Of a DNA stretch of 64,000 nt, positions 5,089 to 30,181 are shown piece after piece. Positions within the stretch are counted from its first letter, which is position 1. Each line of letters begins with the position of its first letter. A program made the translations under genes and the position numbers. Source of the DNA: Ostreococcus lucimarinus (lineage: Eukaryota). The stretch lies in the NCBI GenBank assembly GCA_000092065.1, contig CP000600.1; one strand, given 5' to 3'. The notes beneath the pieces were generated by a model. It had not been told where the DNA came from and did not search any database. It saw nothing but the letters and a program-made list of their open reading frames with translations.

Positions 5089-8000
5089 ATGGCGGCGTCC
5101 CGCGCCGCGGTCGTCGTCCGCGACGGCCTGCACGACCTCCTCGGGTACACCGCGAGCGCGCTCGAGGCGTTCGTGCTGGACAAGGCGCGAGAGAGCGGCG
5201 GCGACGCGCGCGCGCTCGAGGCGGCGCTGATCGAGTGCGGATGTCCCGACGACGAAAAGACGCGCGCGTTCGCGCGCGCGGTGTGCGCGAGCGCGTCCGA
5301 CGACGCGAAAGGGAGCGCGGCGGACGCGCGCGGAGGCGCCGCGGCGTCGACGGGCGTCGCGAGGGCGGCGACGAGGGATGATTGGACGGCGACGCGCGCG
5401 GCGGCGACGTACGAGTTGTTGGCGGAGGAGAGCGAGAGCGAGCGCGAACGCGAACGCGAGGAGGACGACAGAGCGAAGCGAAGGGCGACGAAACGAGCGA
5501 AAAAGATGAGGAAGAAACGAGGGAAGGGCGAGGGGGCGAGCGAGAGCGAGGAGGACGCGGAGGCGGTGGAGACGCGTCGGCGAGCGCTCGCGGGGGAACG
5601 CGAAGACGAATCGTACGAGGCGCCGTCGGCGTCGGAGGAAGACGAAGAGACGAGGAAGGCGCGAGAGATGGAGGAAGATTTGCGAGAGCGCGATGAGTTT
5701 GAACAACGCCTGCGGGCGAAGGATGAGGCGAAGACGAAAAAGTTGAGCGGCGATCGAGGACCGACGGAGGCGGAGCGCGCGGAAGCCGAGCGTCGAGGCG
5801 CGCATTTGGAGACGGATGAACAGCGCACAGATTTAGTGCCCGAACTCAGAAAGGTATCGCGGCAAGAGTACTTGAAGAAACGCGAGCTTCAAAAGCTCGA
5901 GGAGCTGAAAGAATCGATCAAAGAGACGGAGTACTTTTACGAAGGCCAAGACGTGACGGAGGAGCAGCGCAAGGATTTAGAAAAGAGGAAGAAGGTTTAC
6001 GAGCTCGCGATGGAGCAAATCAATAGCATTAACGACGCCTTAGAGGAGCGTTACTCTATACCCACGGCGTACGACGATCCGAACAAGCCGAAGTCCACGA
6101 ACGAACGGTTCGCGGTGGCGAGACAACGATACAAGGAGCCCGACCCCGAGGACGACGCGAATCCTTTCAAGGATCAAGACCAGTGGGAGGCGCATCAAGT
6201 CAAACAAGCGCAGGCGCAGTTCGGAGCGAAGAATAAGAAATCTGAAGTCAAGGAGTACGACTTGGTGTACGACGATCAAATCAAGTTCATCAAGGATGAA
6301 ATCATGGCGGGCGACGGCGTGTCGAGCGGAAGCGAGAGCGAGAGCGAGAGCGAGAGCGAGAGCGAGAGCGAGATGGACGAAGAGAAACGCACCAAGCTCG
6401 CTTTGGCGGGAAAACTCGGGAAAAGGGCCAAGATAGAAGCCGATCGCAAGTCGCTTCCGATTTTTCCATACCGCGAGTCTCTCATCAAGGCGGTGGAGGA
6501 TCACCAAGTCGTCGTCATCGTCGGCGAGACGGGTTCGGGCAAGACGACGCAAATTCCGCAGTACATGTGGGAAGCTGGTTTCGGTGGCAAGACGCAAAAA
6601 ATCGGTTGTACGCAGCCGAGACGAGTGGCGGCGATGTCCGTCGCGTCGCGCGTCGCGGAGGAAGCGGGCGTAAAGCTCGGTCACGAGGTTGGCTACACCA
6701 TTCGTTTCGAGGACTGCACCAACGACAAGACGCGAGTCAAGTACATGACGGACGGGATGCTCTTGCGCGAATTCTTGGGTGAGCCAGACTTGTCGTCGTA
6801 TGCGGTGATGATGGTGGACGAGGCGCACGAGCGCACGCTGCACACCGACGTTCTTTTTGGCCTCGTCAAGGATATCGCCAGATTCCGACCGGAGATCAAG
6901 CTTCTCATCTCCTCCGCCACGCTCGACGCGGAAAAGTTTAGCGAGTACTTTGATTTCGCACCGATTTTCAGAATTCCCGGTCGTCGATTTCCGGTGGATA
7001 TTCTCTACACACAGCAACCCGAGGCAGATTACGTGGACGCCACCGTGGTGACGGTGTTACAAATTCATCTCACCCAACCCGAGGGCGACATTTTAGTCTT
7101 TTGCACCGGTCAAGAGGAGATTGAAAGTTGTGAGGAACTGTTGAAGACGCGCATCCACGAGATGGAGAAGAAACCTCCCGAGCTTATCATCGCGCCCATT
7201 TACGCATCGCTGCCAAGCGACATGCAGGCGAAGATTTTCGAGGACACGCCCAAGGGATCGCGAAAAGTCGTCCTGGCGACGAACATCGCCGAGACGTCGC
7301 TCACGATTGACGGCATCAAATACGTGATTGATCCTGGGTTTTGCAAGCAAAAGAGTTATAACCCACGCACGGGGATGGAGTCACTCGTCGTCACCCCCAC
7401 ATCGCAGGCGAGCGCGTTGCAGCGCGCCGGTCGCGCCGGTCGTACATCGGCGGGAAAGTGTTTCCGTCTATACACGGCGTGGAGTTTCCAAAACGAACTC
7501 GACCCGAACACCGTACCCGAAATTCAGCGCACGAACCTCGGGAACGTGGTGTTGATGTTGAAATCACTCGGAATCAACGATTTGATGCACTTCGACTTCA
7601 TGGATCCGCCCCCGGCCGAGACGTTACTTCGAGCGCTCGAACAACTGTACGCCCTCGGCGCGTTGAACGATAGAGGCGAGCTCACGAAACTCGGGCGCAA
7701 GATGGCTGAGTTCCCTCTGGACCCGATGCTTTCGAAGACGCTCTGCGCGAGTGACAAGTACAAAGTAAGCGATGAAGTGATGACGATTTGCTGCATGCTG
7801 TCGTGCGGAAACACGGTATTTTATCGTCCCAAAGACAAGCTACAGCTCGCCGATCACGCGCACAAATCCTTTCACATCGGCAACGTCGGCGATCACATCG
7901 CGTTATTAAACGTATACAACTCATGGCGTGACGCCGACTTTTCTGTCACGTGGTGTTACGAAAACTTTGTGCAGCAGCGGACGATGAAAACGGCGCGAGA

Positions 8001-10845: not shown

Positions 10846-12412
10846 TCACGCCTCGCGTCGCACATTCACGTGACCTTCACGAATCAATTCATCCAAATTC
10901 AACGTTTCGACGTCAGACGTCGCGTAAAGTACCTTGGCGGTGCGATTACGCTCGTTGAGCGAAATCACCTCCGCGCGATACCACAAGTTATCGTCCGGCC
11001 AAAACAACTGTGGAGGCGGCGCGCGCGCGCGATCACGTCAGTCTTCGCATCCTCGTTCATCTTCTCACGCGCATCGCGTCTTGTCGACGCGTGACGCGAC
11101 GCGTGACGAGACAAATCGCCTCGAGTGGGCGTCGGGCTCCCTCGTCTCGAGGGTTCCGAAAACGACGGTTCGCGCTCGCACCTCAATTTGCGCGTTCTTC
11201 AGCGTCGTCAGCGCTTGATCGGGGTCTAGGATGAACCCAGGGGATGGTTTCTTAAAACCTTGTGCGTCCATCTGCGCATCGAACCGAGGCGTCGATCGCG
11301 TCGTCGTCAGTCGTCGTGGTCGTGGTCGTCGTCATCGTCGCGAAGGAGCGAATCGCGTCACGCGCGCATTCGTCACGAAATCGCCGCCAGCGCGCTTCGT
11401 TCGCACGCACCGGGTCCACTTTATGCTTCTTCACCTTGGAACTATTTCCCTTGACGTCCGCGAGCGCGGTTTTCGCGCCCTTCCCCGTCGCGTCGCGCCC
11501 GTTCGCCTGCGCACCGCCATTCTGACGCGCGCCCGCGCTCGTCGGTTTCTCTTCGCGTCCGTGCGCCGCGCTGAGCGTTTCGTACACCGTGGGCACGGCG
11601 TTGATCTGCGCGAAAAGTGCATCACTGATCGTCGTCGTCGTCCCGCGTCGCCGTCAGTCGCGCGCGTCGTCGTCGAACATCGCGTCGCTTCGTCACCCGC
11701 GAGGGTCGCATTCGCGTCGTTTCAGCGGCATCGGCATCGACGACGACAACGCGCTCGACGCTCGACGCACCGTTTCTTGGCGTCAAACTTGGCGCCGTAA
11801 TAAAACGCCACCGCCATCAACCACGCATCGCTGTGCACGGCGACCAACGCGAGCCAATCCTTACGCTGCGTCGTCGAAAGCACCGCGCATCGCGACTTCG
11901 TCAGTCGGTCGTTCGCGCGCGCGGTCGAATCGAATCAAATCGCATCGTCGCGCCGCATTCGCGCCGCGTTCGCGCCGCGCGCCGCGCGGATTCGCGCGCA
12001 TCGAATTTACCTGCATCCCATCGCGCGCGAAATTAATCCCGAGCGCCGGTTCCGGGAGCTCGGGCGGGACTTCTTCGGCGGGTAATTGCACGTCCCACGT
12101 CCCGTCGGGATTGCCGTACAGGCACAAGTTTTCCTTGTCCGGGTCGCACTGCGCGTAGAACGCCTCGACGTCTGCGTGGTTCGACGCGGGTTAATCGTCT
12201 GCGTCGTCGTTCGCGTTCGCGTCGCGCGCGCTTCGTCGCGCGCTTCGTCGCGCGACCGCGATCGCGTCCCGGTCGCGTCCCGGTCGCGCGACGTGCGAAT
12301 CCGTCGATCGGCGCGCGCGCGCGTTCGTACCGCGCGTCAGGGCCTTGACGAGGCCGTCGCGTCGACGGGAAAAGTTTGCGTGGACCTCATCGACCGTGCG
12401 CGGGGCCTCCAT
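10846..12412 (-). CDS. Alfin-like PAL-domain chromatin reader. Six-exon model: complement join(12331..12412,12011..12171,11771..11865,11411..11624,11182..11271,10846..11007). The C-terminal exon encodes a Tudor/Agenet-like domain rather than the usual PHD finger.
   Basis: Manual splicing. Exons 1-4 give [132 protein letters not shown], which is near-colinear with plant Alfin PAL domains. Introns are 139-174 nt with GTRMGW donors, CTGAC branch and CAG acceptors. Exon lengths sum to 804 nt, in frame. The last exon ([47 protein letters not shown]) ends at TGA 10846 and is followed by AT-richer 3'UTR. Exons 5-6 are less certain than 1-4. Confidence 0.6.
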
Positions 12413-25748: not shown

Positions 25749-27086
25749 TCATCGCCAAAGTCGAGATTCGACAAGAAACGCGCGCAACTCTTTCAACCCC
25801 TTGTCGACGGCCAGCGCGTCGCGCTTGAAACGCAGCGGCTGCCGCATGTTGGGATTCGTCATCGTTTGCATTTCCGACAGCCAATGCTCCTCGCGCTCGT
25901 CCGCCACGCCGGCATCCATGCCCGCCTCTCGAGCACGCGCCCACATAAATCTCAACCACGCGCGGCGAAAATGGAATTCGTGAATCTCATCGTCGCTCAA
26001 CGCGCTCGAGTCGTCCTCGCTCGCTGCGTTACGTGATATGCTCGAAATCGCCGACGCACGACGCACGTCTGCGAGCGAAACGACGACGCGCTCTTCTATT
26101 CTACGTGACGCCAGATAACGCATCGCGATTTCCACGCCGAGCGCGTCTCTGAAATTCCTCGGCCACGATGGGTTCAAACTCGGTGGAAGCGACGTGTGCG
26201 TGGGACCGGCGTGTTCATCGGGTTGCACACCGTTTTCATCGTTCTCTACGGGCTCTTCGGTGTCCATCGCAGACGCCGATGCGGTCACGAGCGAGGTGTC
26301 TACTTCGTACGACGCCACCGGCTTCGCGCCGGCTTCTATCAAGACGTCGCCAATCTTTCTCGCGATCGATGCGTGCGTGTCGTCCTTCTCGAGGGCGATC
26401 CCAAACGCCCGCGTCCACGTTTCGGCTTCTTGTTTGATGTCCTCATCGATCGGCGCTAAGCCAAGGGCAATCATGAGGTTAAAATATCGCGCGCACCATC
26501 CCGCCTTGAGCGAAAACTCTCTCCGCTGCGCGTCGTCTAATACGTACTGGGACGCCGCCATCTTCGCAGCGCGCACCTCATCTCGTGCCTCCTGATCCCT
26601 CGCTAACGCCTCGTTATCGCGCTCGTTCGCCGAGTAAATCGCCGCCTCAAGCTGCGACGAAAGCATTTCTCTATGCGCCTCGAACTCGTGCTCGCGTCGA
26701 CGCAATTGCGCCTCCAGTCTCGTCAACACCCTCGCTTCACCGACGTTCTCCTCCCTCAGCGCGCGCACGCGCTCCTGCAGCTCCACCACCATCTCCGCCG
26801 ACGTCTTCGCCTTCCTTTCCGCCTCCTCCAGCGCTTCCCGCAACCGCGCGTTCTCCTCTCTCGCCGCCCGCTCGCTTTCCCGTCGCCGCTCCGACTCTCG
26901 CGCCGCCGCGTCGTCATCCGGCGACCGCATCCCCTGTCCCTGCGCGCTCGTCCGCCCGTTCCCTCCACCTCCCGTCGTCGTCGTCGTCGCCCGTTCCCCG
27001 CCCGCGGTTCGCCCTCTATTCGGCGATCGCGCCTCGCCTCGTTCGCGTTCGCGTTCCCCAAACTTTAACCGTTGTCGCGCGTCCAT
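25749..27086 (-). CDS. Hypothetical coiled-coil protein
   Basis: ORF 25749..27341 (-), trimmed to ATG at complement 27084..27086 (MDARQRLKF). Central coiled coil; no family recognised. Confidence 0.4.
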   Translation of the reverse strand: MDARQRLKFGERERERGEARSPNRGRTAGGERATTTTTGGGGNGRTSAQGQGMRSPDDDAAARESERRRESERAAREENARLREALEEAERKAKTSAEMVVELQERVRALREENVGEARVLTRLEAQLRRREHEFEAHREMLSSQLEAAIYSANERDNEALARDQEARDEVRAAKMAASQYVLDDAQRREFSLKAGWCARYFNLMIALGLAPIDEDIKQEAETWTRAFGIALEKDDTHASIARKIGDVLIEAGAKPVASYEVDTSLVTASASAMDTEEPVENDENGVQPDEHAGPTHTSLPPSLNPSWPRNFRDALGVEIAMRYLASRRIEERVVVSLADVRRASAISSISRNAASEDDSSALSDDEIHEFHFRRAWLRFMWARAREAGMDAGVADEREEHWLSEMQTMTNPNMRQPLRFKRDALAVDKGLKELRAFLVESRLWR

Positions 27087-27562
27087 CCATTCGTTCCCTT
27101 TTTTCCCCCGTTCCCGCGCCTCGCTCGCCGATTTCGCCGCGGTCGCGCGCCGCGTCGCGAATCGCTCGCCGTCGCCCTCGCGCGCGCGTTCGCGCGGCGT
27201 CGGCGCCGGCGGTTCGACGTCGACCTTTCGCGCCAACCTGCGTCGTCGAGCGATTCGCGTCAGTCTTCCCTCTCGCGGCGTCGCGCGCGCGTCGCGAATC
27301 GTCGCGCGCGCCGCGCGCGCGTCGCGCGATGTCTCTCGCACCTCGCCGCGACGTCGCGCGCGCGATCGAGCATCGCGCGCGTCGCGACGCGCGTCGAGCG
27401 CGCGTGTGACGTCACAGTCGCGCGCTCAAATCGAACATGCGCGCGCGCGCGTGCGCCTCGCGCGCGATTCCGCGCGCGGCGATCGCGCCGAGACGCGCGA
27501 ACGCGCGGTCGACGACGCGAACGGCGCGCTCGATCGCGGCGCGGGCGTCGAGAGAGGAGGAA

Positions 27563-28535
27563 ATGATGGCGAAACTCATGGGGATGATGGGACTCGGCGG
27601 CGACGGCATCGTCGCCGCGGCGGACGCGCTTCCGGGACGCGCGCAGGCGATGCGCGTGAGCGATCAGCACTACGTCTTGAAGGGGCACGCGATGCGCGCG
27701 CCGTTTCCCGAAAATCTCGAGCGGGCGACGTTCGCGACGGGGTGCTTTTGGGGGACGGAGAAGGTGCGACGACGACGACGCGAGCGCGACGCGGTGAGGG
27801 CGAGGGCGACGATCGAGACTGACGGGAGATTGCGGTGCGCGCGATAGATGTTCTGGCGCGTGCCGGGCGTGTACACGACGGCGGTGGGGTACGTCGGCGG
27901 TCACACGCCGAACCCGACGTACGAGGAGGTGTGCAGCGGACGCACCGGACACACCGAGTGCGTGCAAGTGCTCTACGATCCAGCCGTGGTGTCGTTCGCG
28001 GATTTGTTGGCGATGCACTGGACGTGCCACGATCCGACGCAGGGTAACCGACAAGGAAACGACCGAGGGACGCAGTACAGAAGCGGGATTTATTGCGACA
28101 CCGAGGCGCAGTTGGCCGTCGCGAAGGACTCCGCCGAGGCGTATTCCGAGGCGTTGAAAGCGGCGGGGAAGAATGGGGCGATCACGAGCGAAATCAAGGG
28201 ACCGGGCGATACGTTTTATTACGCCGAGGACTACCACCAGCAGTAGTGCGTGCATCGAACGCTTTCGCGTCTCGTCTCGAGCGTCTCGTCTCGCGAGCGC
28301 GAAGCGCGCCGACTGACCGACGACGCGTCTCGACCACCACAGTTTGGCCAAACCGCGCAGCCGACCGTACTGCTCCGCGCAACCGACGGGCGTGCCCGTG
28401 CCCGAGGCCTGGCTCAAGGCTAACGGCGCCAAATTCGGCGCTGGTTACTGGAAAACCTTCGGCCCCGCGCCCGGCTGCACCATCAACGTGCCCAACGCGC
28501 CCGTGACGCTCGAAGAAGCCCTGGCGGCCAACTAA
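27563..28535 (+). CDS. msrA: Peptide methionine sulfoxide reductase A, copy 1. Three exons: join(27563..27763,27848..28245,28343..28535).
   Basis: Three track ORFs (27437.., 27848.., 28344..) are joined by introns of 84 and 97 nt (GTGCGA/GTGCGT donors, CTGAC branch, TAG/CAG acceptors). The spliced protein GCFWGTEK|MFWRVPGV...YHQQ|[17 protein letters not shown] is colinear with the intronless paralogue downstream. An alternative upstream in-frame start at 27437 would add a transit-like peptide. Confidence 0.8.
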
Positions 28536-28675
28536 CGCGCTCGAGCCGCATCACGCACTCTCGTTGTCATTCAAATCATTCAACGCACGCGAACGGACGA
28601 CGTCACGCGGGAACAACGCGACGCAACGCAATCCATCGTCCCGCCTCCGCGCCACTCTCCGCCTCGCGCGTCCCG

Positions 28676-29431
28676 ATGCAACAGTTGAAGAACATCTTCC
28701 GCGGCGCGTCCGCGTCGCAATCTCGCGCCCCGATCGTCGTCTCCTCGACGCATTACGTGTTGAAAACCGACGTGAAGCGAACGCCGAGCGGGCACGACGT
28801 CGTCGTCGTCGCCACGGGTTGTTTTTGGGGCGCGGAAAAGATGTTTTGGCGACTGCCGGGCGTGCACAGCACGTCGGTCGGGTACGTCGGCGGACGCGCG
28901 ACGAACCCGACGTACGAGGAGGTGTGCTCGGGCTCGACGGGACACACCGAGTGCGTTAAAGTGACGTACGACCCGCGGAAGGTGTCGTTCGCGGATTTGT
29001 TGGCGATGCACTGGACGTGCCACGACCCGACGCAGGGCGACGGGCAAGGCAACGACCGCGGGACGCAGTACAGGAGCGGGATTTATTGCACGACGGACGC
29101 GCAGTTAGCGATGGCGAAAGACTCGGCGAAAGCGTACGGGGAAGCGCTGCGGGCGGCGGGGAAGAGTGGGGCGATCACGAGCGAAATCAAGGGACCGGGC
29201 GATACGTTTTATTACGCCGAGGACTACCACCAGCAATACTTGGCCAAGCCCGGAAGCCGGCCGTATTGTTCGGCGCAACCGACGGGGGTGCCGATGCCCG
29301 TGACGTGGCTCGAGACGAACGGGGCGAAGTTTGGCGCCGGATTTTGGGCGAAGTACGGCCCGAAACCGACGTGCACGATTGGCGTGCCGAACGAACCGAT
29401 TTCGTCGGAAGACGCGTCCGCGGCGCGGTGA
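28676..29431 (+). CDS. msrA: Peptide methionine sulfoxide reductase A, copy 2 (intronless tandem paralogue)
   Basis: ORF 28676..29431 (+): [16 protein letters not shown]...[23 protein letters not shown]. Roughly 75% identical to copy 1 at the protein level. Confidence 0.85.
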
Positions 29432-29545
29432 ATTCCATCGACGTCGATCGCGGTGGGGTGTTGTTTACCATGTTTTTACTTTTTACACGTGAAAGCTCGA
29501 TCAGTTGTAACCGAAGATTTAGATCGCTAAGCGTCGCGCGCGCGC

Positions 29546-29618
29546 GCGTCGTCGAGGTCGCGCGGTTACAATCGCGTCGAGCGTCGTCGAGGTCGCGCGG
29601 TTACAATCGCGTCGAGCG
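29546..29618. repeat. Two direct tandem copies of a ~36-nt unit (cgtcgtcgaggtcgcgcggttacaatcgcgtcgag) in a convergent intergenic / 3'UTR region
   Basis: Seen directly in the sequence between the MsrA copy 2 stop (29431) and the Yos1 stop (29633). Confidence 0.5.
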
Positions 29619-29632
29619 TCGCGTCTCGCGGC

Positions 29633-29872
29633 TCACCCGAAGACCACCTTGACGAAGACGACGATCGCGTTCAGCGCGATCAGGGGCACGCGCAGGTACG
29701 TCGCGGCGTTGATGACGCCGATGATCTGTCCCTTGGCGCTCGCGGGCGCGACCGCGCCGTCGCGGACGTCGCGCGCGGTGAGTCCGCGCTTCGCGAGGAA
29801 GCGCGGCTCGTTGAGGATCGCGACCGCGTTCGCGGCGAGCAGCGCGCTCTGCGTGAGCGTCCAGAGCGTCAT
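29633..29872 (-). CDS. Yos1/IER3IP1-like small ER-Golgi membrane protein (79 aa)
   Basis: ORF 29633..30085 (-), trimmed to the internal ATG (MTLWTLTQSALLAANAVAILNEPRFLAKRG...QIIGVINAATYLRVPLIALNAIVVFVKVVFG). This parallels IER3IP1 (FTLYSLLQAALLCVNAIAVLHEERFL...MRVPLIILN). Confidence 0.65.
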   Translation of the reverse strand: MTLWTLTQSALLAANAVAILNEPRFLAKRGLTARDVRDGAVAPASAKGQIIGVINAATYLRVPLIALNAIVVFVKVVFG

Positions 29873-30181
29873 GACGCGCGCGGGCGCTCGCGTCGAGGCG
29901 CCGTCGCGGTCGAGGCGCCGCGCGGCGTCGCGCGCGGCGCTGTGGCGTCGCGACGCGCGTTCAACGAATCGTGCGGGGCAATCGACGAGTCGTGACTCGA
30001 GAGGTGGGACGAGAGACACGATGGTGTTCGCGTCGATCGCGCGCGATCGCCGCACACCCGCGCGCGCCTCGACGCGCCGCCGCACGCCGCGCCGAACGCG
30101 CCGCGCGCACGCCCGTTCGCCCGCGCGCTCGCGCGCGAGAGACGCACCGCCCGAGCGCAGGACGCGCGCGCGAGAGACGCG

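Follow-up and report, generated by a model that had tools for sequence, protein, structure and literature searches.

Ostreococcus lucimarinus carries two genes for methionine sulfoxide reductase A (MsrA) side by side on contig CP000600.1, at positions 27437-29431 of the 64,000-nucleotide (nt) stretch analysed here (the window), and only the upstream gene, copy 1, is interrupted by introns. This arrangement raises the question whether the downstream gene, copy 2, lost introns that copy 1 retains, whether it arose from processed RNA, or whether the introns of copy 1 are themselves new. A preliminary description of the window had suggested either precise intron loss after tandem duplication or retroposition of a processed copy next to its parent. 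We read the locus instead as an old tandem pair of functional MsrA genes, the first encoding a form with a presequence and the second a short form, homogenized by gene conversion and carrying evolutionarily young spliceosomal introns, and we put the probability of this reading at about 0.7. Gene family, tandem paralogues, spliceosomal introns and gene conversion are all of known kinds, and a full-text literature search returned no paper on this locus or on MsrA intron turnover in Ostreococcus.

The two genes are separate, lie head-to-tail on the plus strand and were delimited from an open reading frame (ORF) map and translation of the window:

27437..27763, plus strand: MsrA copy 1, exon 1; transit-like presequence at residues 1-37, then an 11-residue motif; the exon ends in GCFWGTEK with the catalytic Cys
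27764..27847, plus strand: intron 1 (position b), 84 nt, phase 0, between EK and MFWR, GT-AG
27848..28245, plus strand: MsrA copy 1, exon 2; MFWRVPGV...AEDYHQQ and the TA of a Tyr codon; Pfam PMSR, E=5.6e-47
28246..28342, plus strand: intron 2 (position c), 97 nt, phase 2, GT-AG
28343..28535, plus strand: MsrA copy 1, exon 3; from the T of the Tyr codon to ...EEALAAN and the stop; groups with copy-1 orthologues
28536..28675, no strand: intergenic spacer, 140 nt
28676..29431, plus strand: MsrA copy 2; intronless ORF of 251 residues with a short N-terminus (MQQLKNIF...) and GCFWGAEK; Pfam PMSR, E=1.3e-57

The start at 27437 is the first ATG past the upstream stop. Removal of both introns from 27437-28535 leaves a 918-nt ORF of 305 residues with the junctions GCFWGTEK/MFWRVPGV and YHQQ/YLAKP, whose counterparts are contiguous in copy 2. 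Retention of intron 1 brings in an in-frame TAG at 27845-27847; intron 2 splits the Tyr codon TA/T, and its retention creates a stop (TA/G) at 28244-28246. Upon splicing, exon 3 regains both the frame and the homology to copy 2. This much had been described correctly before, down to the coordinates, the spacer, the intron lengths and the difference between GCFWGTEK and GCFWGAEK. The earlier estimate of roughly 75% protein identity falls between our values of 70% over 251 aligned residues and ∼79% from ATGCFWG on. The exact copy-2 protein also occurs on a metagenome contig from the Joint Genome Institute (JGI).

Age of the tandem pair and its intron positions

The genes around MsrA keep the same order in at least six Ostreococcus lineages: SAICAR synthase, a 530-residue gene on the other strand, MsrA copy 1, MsrA copy 2, Yos1 and GDP-mannose dehydratase. 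This order was found in the window, in the O. lucimarinus-like metagenome scaffolds L002 (98-99% identical to the window) and L003, in a sister lineage (L008), in O. tauri (L011) and in L012, L016 and L014/L020. A tree of SAICAR synthase with outgroups places the Ostreococcus loci in one group. A metagenome scan with copy 2 gave mostly bacterial MsrA, and the useful loci among the matches listed were L025, another tandem pair, and L026, which like L018 is a single-copy contig with a different gene context. All MsrA matches in viral contigs were distant (53-55% identity).

Trees of the N-core and of the C-terminal segment both place copy-1 genes together and copy-2 genes together. In every tandem lineage 91-122 residues precede GCFWG in copy 1, and 45-49 residues with an MQxLKN-like start do so in copy 2; in L012 and L014 copy 1 is a single uninterrupted ORF of 320-326 residues, followed by a separate copy 2. 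Synonymous divergence (dS) between the paralogues reaches 2.05 in the C-terminal segment, exceeding the orthologue values. Because of the shared synteny, the grouping of orthologues and this C-terminal dS, the pair is old, and recent duplication and retroposition are excluded; by these sequence comparisons the duplication appears to predate the split of the sampled Ostreococcus lineages. Synteny and selection were among the checks that the preliminary description had proposed for the pair. The ratio of nonsynonymous divergence (dN) to dS is 0.235/0.869 between copy 1 and copy 2 and 0.149/0.94 (0.16) between copy 1 and its sister-lineage orthologue, which points to purifying selection on both copies. 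Between the window and L002, copy 1 shows two differences in its exons and none in either intron.

The extra length of copy 1 has the composition of a targeting presequence. It comprises 27-59 residues in six lineages, is rich in Ala, Ser and Thr, holds 7-12 Arg and Lys against 0-2 Asp and Glu, and ends in xRA followed by S(R/K)EEE; its frame is open in all six. The transit-like extension suspected earlier for a start at 27437 is thereby borne out as a basic, acid-poor presequence. Plant MSRA comes in plastidial and cytosolic isoforms (Arabidopsis PMSR4 versus PMSR1-3), likewise one with a transit peptide and one without, and by analogy copy 1 is probably organellar and copy 2 cytosolic. Unlike the plant isoforms, the Ostreococcus genes lie side by side in tandem and continue to exchange sequence.

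The twelve genes whose exact structures were worked out contain five distinct intron positions:

Position a, phase 1, in the Gly codon ahead of the catalytic Cys: L016 copy 1 (217 nt) and L016 copy 2 (66 nt)
Position b, phase 0, between EK and MFWR: window copy 1 (84 nt), L008 copy 1 (61 nt) and L008 copy 2 (96 nt)
Position c, phase 2, in the Tyr codon after YHQQ: window copy 1 only (97 nt)
Position d, phase 1, 5 nt downstream of c: O. tauri copy 2 (62 nt)
Position e, phase 0, 25 nt downstream of c: O. tauri copy 1 (102 nt)

Each position is confined to one lineage or one pair of sister lineages, and MsrA is intronless in L012, L014/L020, L025 and the single-copy contigs L018 and L026. Intron 2 is present and unchanged in strain L002 and absent from copy 1 and copy 2 of all other lineages examined. 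A concatenation of three flanking proteins gave the topology (((window, L008) 88%, (O. tauri, L012) 99%) 93%, L020), with L016 as root. On this tree a single gain accounts for position c, whereas losses alone would have to number at least four, each independent and precise. By parsimony on so small a tree, intron 2 is most likely an acquisition of O. lucimarinus after its split from L008, and the gain at position b would have come before that split, in their shared ancestor. In O. lucimarinus, copy 2 either lost the position-b intron or never had one; its absence may be a loss, because L008 has the intron in both copies.

The strongest alternative holds that both introns predate the duplication or the species, and that copy 2 lost them precisely, by recombination with cDNA or by gene conversion. 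We consider it unlikely, though it has real points in its favour: with position b occupied in both copies of L008, the ancestral copy 2 may have had an intron, and active conversion could erase one, given an intronless donor. Position c, however, occurs in one of seven copy-1 orthologues and in no copy 2, and neither of the two single-copy outgroup contigs has it; positions a, d and e are likewise each found in one lineage. Moreover, no recent conversion between the paralogues is seen in the N-core near position b. The earlier proposal of intron loss from copy 2 consequently fails for the 97-nt intron, which is confined to copy 1 of O. lucimarinus and behaves as a gain, and survives as a possibility for the 84-nt intron.

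The locus offers a compact case for studying how introns come and go in a well-sampled marine genus that has very few of them: the introns are lineage-specific, no repeat family was detected among the sequences compared, and the two paralogues visibly exchange sequence. Ostreococcus is abundant in metagenomes and metatranscriptomes, so intron presence/absence polymorphism, and the part that conversion plays in spreading or erasing introns, can be tested directly.

Gene conversion and the origin of the introns

The middles of the two genes have a history different from that of their ends. The copies share two identical runs, one of 45 nt (27988-28032 in copy 1 and 28981-29025 in copy 2) and one of 69 nt (28174-28242 and 29167-29235). 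At the observed 83.7% identity, a 69-nt run was reached in 0.04% of simulations, and this run ends 3 nt ahead of the intron 2 donor. In a tree of the middle segment the genes of several lineages group by species and not by orthology, and dS in this segment is 0.54 between paralogues versus 1.4-1.6 between orthologues.

The window and L002 differ at 42 sites over 2212 nt, and 31 of these 42 fall within one stretch of copy 2:

29026..29166, plus strand: polymorphic conversion tract in copy 2, 141 nt; at nearly all 31 sites L002 copy 2 has the copy-1 base

The tract fills exactly the gap between the runs at 28981-29025 and 29167-29235, and since L002 carries copy-1 bases in it, the two genes of that strain are identical over 255 nt. 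Copy 2 of the window keeps residues typical of copy-2 orthologues in the tract, so the conversion in L002 ran from copy 1 to copy 2. The copies exchange sequence by gene conversion, and the exchange appears as polymorphism between strains.

On our reading of these patterns, the duplication is old, copy 1 carries a cleavable-looking presequence and copy 2 a short N-terminus. Ectopic gene conversion has homogenized the middles of the genes repeatedly, leaving the ends distinct. Intron 1 would have arisen before O. lucimarinus and its sister lineage diverged, intron 2 on the O. lucimarinus branch, and copy 2 would have lost intron 1 or never received it.

How intron 2 came to be inserted may be indicated by its borders, which carry an imperfect 12-nt direct repeat formed by the exon sequence ACCACCAGCAGT and the intron end ACCACCA-CAGT. 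A repeat this good was equalled by 0.18% of random 22-mers from the window and by none of 56 mismatched junction pairs; the other seven introns have no border direct repeat. As a single case, it is suggestive of insertion during break repair.

A family of introner elements was considered as a source, and no evidence for one was found within the 64-kb window and the fetched loci. A blastn-short search of all eight introns against the window and the fetched loci, together with an all-against-all comparison of 16 candidate introns, covered 64 kb of this genome and found only low-complexity matches (GACGAC/CGCG) and splice motifs. In the sister genus Micromonas, introner elements represent recent, lineage-specific intron gain (Verhelst 2013, PMC3879977; Simmons 2015, PMC4540971). 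The IE-C introners of Micromonas (∼67 nt; PMC3879977, PMC4540971) also carry the GACTGACG motif. Introners form multi-copy families, however, whereas the MsrA introns have no further copies within the 64-kb window or the fetched loci.

A wider proposal, which we advance tentatively and with more doubt than confidence, is that the MsrA tandem might act as a hot spot where new introns are gained independently of introners, with five positions in one genus, in a gene of ∼250 codons, and with full-strength splice signals. Conversion that homogenizes the exons could then have copied introns between paralogues at shared positions and erased them elsewhere, and the location of intron 2 at the edge of a conversion tract, with its 12-nt repeat, would fit insertion during double-strand-break repair.

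As a separate observation on position a, the 217-nt intron of L016 copy 1 (5761-5977 of L016) carries ATGATGA and CTGA boxes as well as a direct repeat of 20 nt within it; in Rfam it gave only sub-threshold matches to C/D-box small nucleolar RNAs (E 0.5-0.8).

Splicing, public gene models and the integrity of copy 1

Both introns of copy 1 carry the signals expected of this species. EST-confirmed (expressed sequence tag) introns of O. lucimarinus outside chromosome 2 begin with GTGCGTG and contain ACTGAC in 87% and GACTGACG in 66.5% of cases (Irimia and Roy 2008, PMC2483917, a study that cites 17,592 ESTs). Intron 1 begins with GTGCGA (GTGCGAC), has the branch point GACTGACG 24 nt before its 3' end and ends in ATAG. 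Intron 2 begins with GTGCGTG, the exact published consensus, has GACTGACC 25 nt before its 3' end and ends in ACAG. Compared with the canonical introns outside chromosome 2 (PMC2483917), both conform and their signals are ordinary; what sets them apart is their narrow spread across lineages. The signal pattern GTGCG...ACTGAC...YAG (up to ∼300 nt) has 16 matches in the window, against 3.3 expected from a first-order Markov simulation of it. The agreement with published signals, together with the exact restoration of frame and homology, puts both introns far beyond chance.

Three contigs from other samples, L022-L024, bear on splicing in the sister lineage. They are 91-93% identical to L008 and lack exactly its 61-nt position-b intron; they also lack exactly the canonical intron (GTGCGT...GACTGAC...CAG) of the divergent neighbour gene on the opposite strand, and all of them end ∼50 nt past the copy-1 stop, ahead of the copy-2 ATG. 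These contigs are most simply understood as assemblies of RNA. In that case the intron at position b is removed at its predicted borders, transcription of copy 1 stops short of copy 2, and the extension at the copy-1 N-terminus, which these contigs contain, is transcribed in frame. In O. lucimarinus itself, to judge from signals and frame, both introns are probably spliced.

Public protein models tell a different story. The 90%-identity cluster of copy 2 includes XP_001422479.1 (P0125), a "predicted protein" of O. lucimarinus CCE9901 that starts at copy-1 residue 50 (MMGLGG); its first 64 residues are copy-1 residues 50-113 and its last 198 are identical to copy-2 residues 54-251. To judge from the protein, it joins copy-1 exon 1 to copy 2 at MFWRL, implying a 1077-nt intron at 27764-28840. 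A single gene of this form is very improbable. The GT at 27764 and the AG at 28839-28840 would allow the splice, and the public protein matches it, but the supposed intron holds a conserved MsrA frame under purifying selection with canonical introns of its own. The apparently RNA-derived sister contigs, too, connect exon 1 with exon 2 of copy 1 and do not reach copy 2, and the uninterrupted copy 1 of L012 and L014 stands next to a separate copy 2. Finally, P0005, the model for O. tauri RCC1115, is likewise chimeric (98 residues of copy 1 and 159 of copy 2, spanning 1870 nt), and its two parts are fused at a different, non-homologous point. Such differing joints are a typical product of homology-guided prediction across tandem paralogues. 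The two-gene structure is better than the RefSeq model and replaces both chimeric models, giving corrected gene models for O. lucimarinus CCE9901 and O. tauri RCC1115, where a conserved pair had been merged into one protein. The real O. tauri genes (L011; KZ155785.1, 6001-7870) have their introns at 6601-6702 and 7621-7682. The spliced copy-1 protein of O. lucimarinus was found in the protein collection neither by exact look-up nor by homologue search.

Other proteins in the collection are composite as well. P0129 (copy-1 exon 2 with the copy-2 C-terminus, on 13 contigs) and P0134 (the 5' part of copy 2, ending at YHQQ as though intron 2 came next) both belong to the copy-2 cluster and are reciprocal chimeras with their joint at the identical run ahead of YHQQ. 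They may represent real haplotypes produced by unequal crossover or, alternatively, path switches during assembly. P0122, a 196-residue copy-2 protein starting at MFWR, was considered as a sign of a position-b intron in copy 2 and rejected as an artefact; its sources are one scaffold in which a gap of 100 N covers the region, together with four contigs that begin 32 nt upstream. P0019, which joins an L008-type copy-2 exon 1 at EK/MFWR to a Bathycoccus-like remainder, is probably a chimeric unigene and was not used.

It is equally hard to see copy 1 as a decaying pseudogene whose interruptions are insertions. The interruptions have GT-AG ends, species-specific 5' and branch motifs and a branch-to-3' distance of 24-25 nt. 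The exons are intact, with the low dN/dS of 0.16 and the two differences from L002 given above, and the position-b intron appears to be spliced in the sister lineage, as L022-L024 suggest. Least credible of all is a processed retrocopy, as the preliminary description had envisaged, since copy 2 does lack both copy-1 introns in this genome but sits in the same neighbourhood in at least six lineages, forms an orthologue group by its N-terminus (MQxLKN...) and C-terminus, bears introns in L008, O. tauri and L016, has no poly(A) tract after its stop and, by the C-terminal dS of 2.05, is older than the species splits.

Several points weigh against an old, conversion-homogenized pair with young introns. 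The species tree comes from three flanking proteins by neighbour-joining with an assumed root, and L020 shifts between analyses. The outgroups are two single-copy metagenome contigs, the comparison being made without Bathycoccus, the named Micromonas genomes or other green algae. By global-alignment z-scores, introns that share a position resemble each other no more than introns at different positions do, so their sequences can demonstrate neither orthology nor transfer. Where both paralogues have an intron at one position (a in L016, b in L008), older gains followed by losses are another possible reading, which requires more losses. For intron 2 of O. lucimarinus the case for splicing consists of its signals and the restored frame, the RNA origin of L022-L024 is deduced from their structure, and the probable targeting of copy 1 was judged from presequence composition.

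Protein function and neighbouring features

Both copies belong to the Pfam family PF01625 (PMSR), copy 2 with 194.8 bits and copy-1 exon 2 with 160.3 bits (cut-off 23.7). The catalytic Cys in GCFWGTEK (copy 1) and GCFWGAEK (copy 2) aligns to the GCFWG of 1FVA and 1FF3, and its codons, TGC and TGT, specify Cys and not selenocysteine. The closest solved structures to copy 2 are bovine 1FVA (1.6e-56) and E. coli 1FF3; the Ostreococcus proteins are nearer to this bacterial and animal type (1e-56) than to poplar MSRA 2J89 (E=6e-42). The recycling cysteines of E. coli MsrA are Cys198 and Cys206. The first recycling Cys of 1FF3 and 1FVA (GYC) aligns to PYC of the Ostreococcus copies (E ∼1e-56), whereas the second (GVC/GVSC) is replaced by GVP(M/V)P in both, GVPMP facing GVCLP in the alignment. 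Both copies also have a C-terminal extension of ∼43 residues beyond the Pfam and structure matches to 1FF3 and 1FVA, with one conserved Cys. Like the E. coli and bovine enzymes, they would be expected to perform ordinary Met-S-sulfoxide reduction. The extension (29300-29431 in copy 2; 28410-28535 in copy 1) reads WL..NGAKFG.G.W...GP.P.CTI.VPN..., and many algal and protist homologues match through to the end of the query.

Some further features of the window and its relatives were recorded. Of the 16 candidate introns that fit the splice-signal pattern, four are consecutive on the minus strand at 11008-12149. An Rfam scan of 27000-29900 found no RNA family. Downstream of copy 2, at 29543-29612, the window has two tandem 35-bp repeats (CGCGCGTCGTCGAGGTCGCGCGGTTACAATCGCGT), and L002 has none. 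Between MsrA copy 2 and Yos1, L002 (10877-12378; also L105) carries a segment of ∼1.5 kb that represents strain-level gene presence/absence and encodes a Cys-rich, signal-peptide-like ORF of 421 residues with no Pfam hit on record; at the same site L012 has an ORF of 353 residues with a faint YHYH hit. On the other side of the pair, the divergent neighbour (530-residue ORF, 25749-27341, minus strand) has a canonical 104-nt intron at 27238-27341, right after a short first exon. Its ATG lies at 27373..27371, leaving 63 nt between the two divergent start codons, and in this interval a palindrome, TGACGTCA, stands at 27407-27414; an ACGTCA core is found at this place in L008, L011 and L016 as well.

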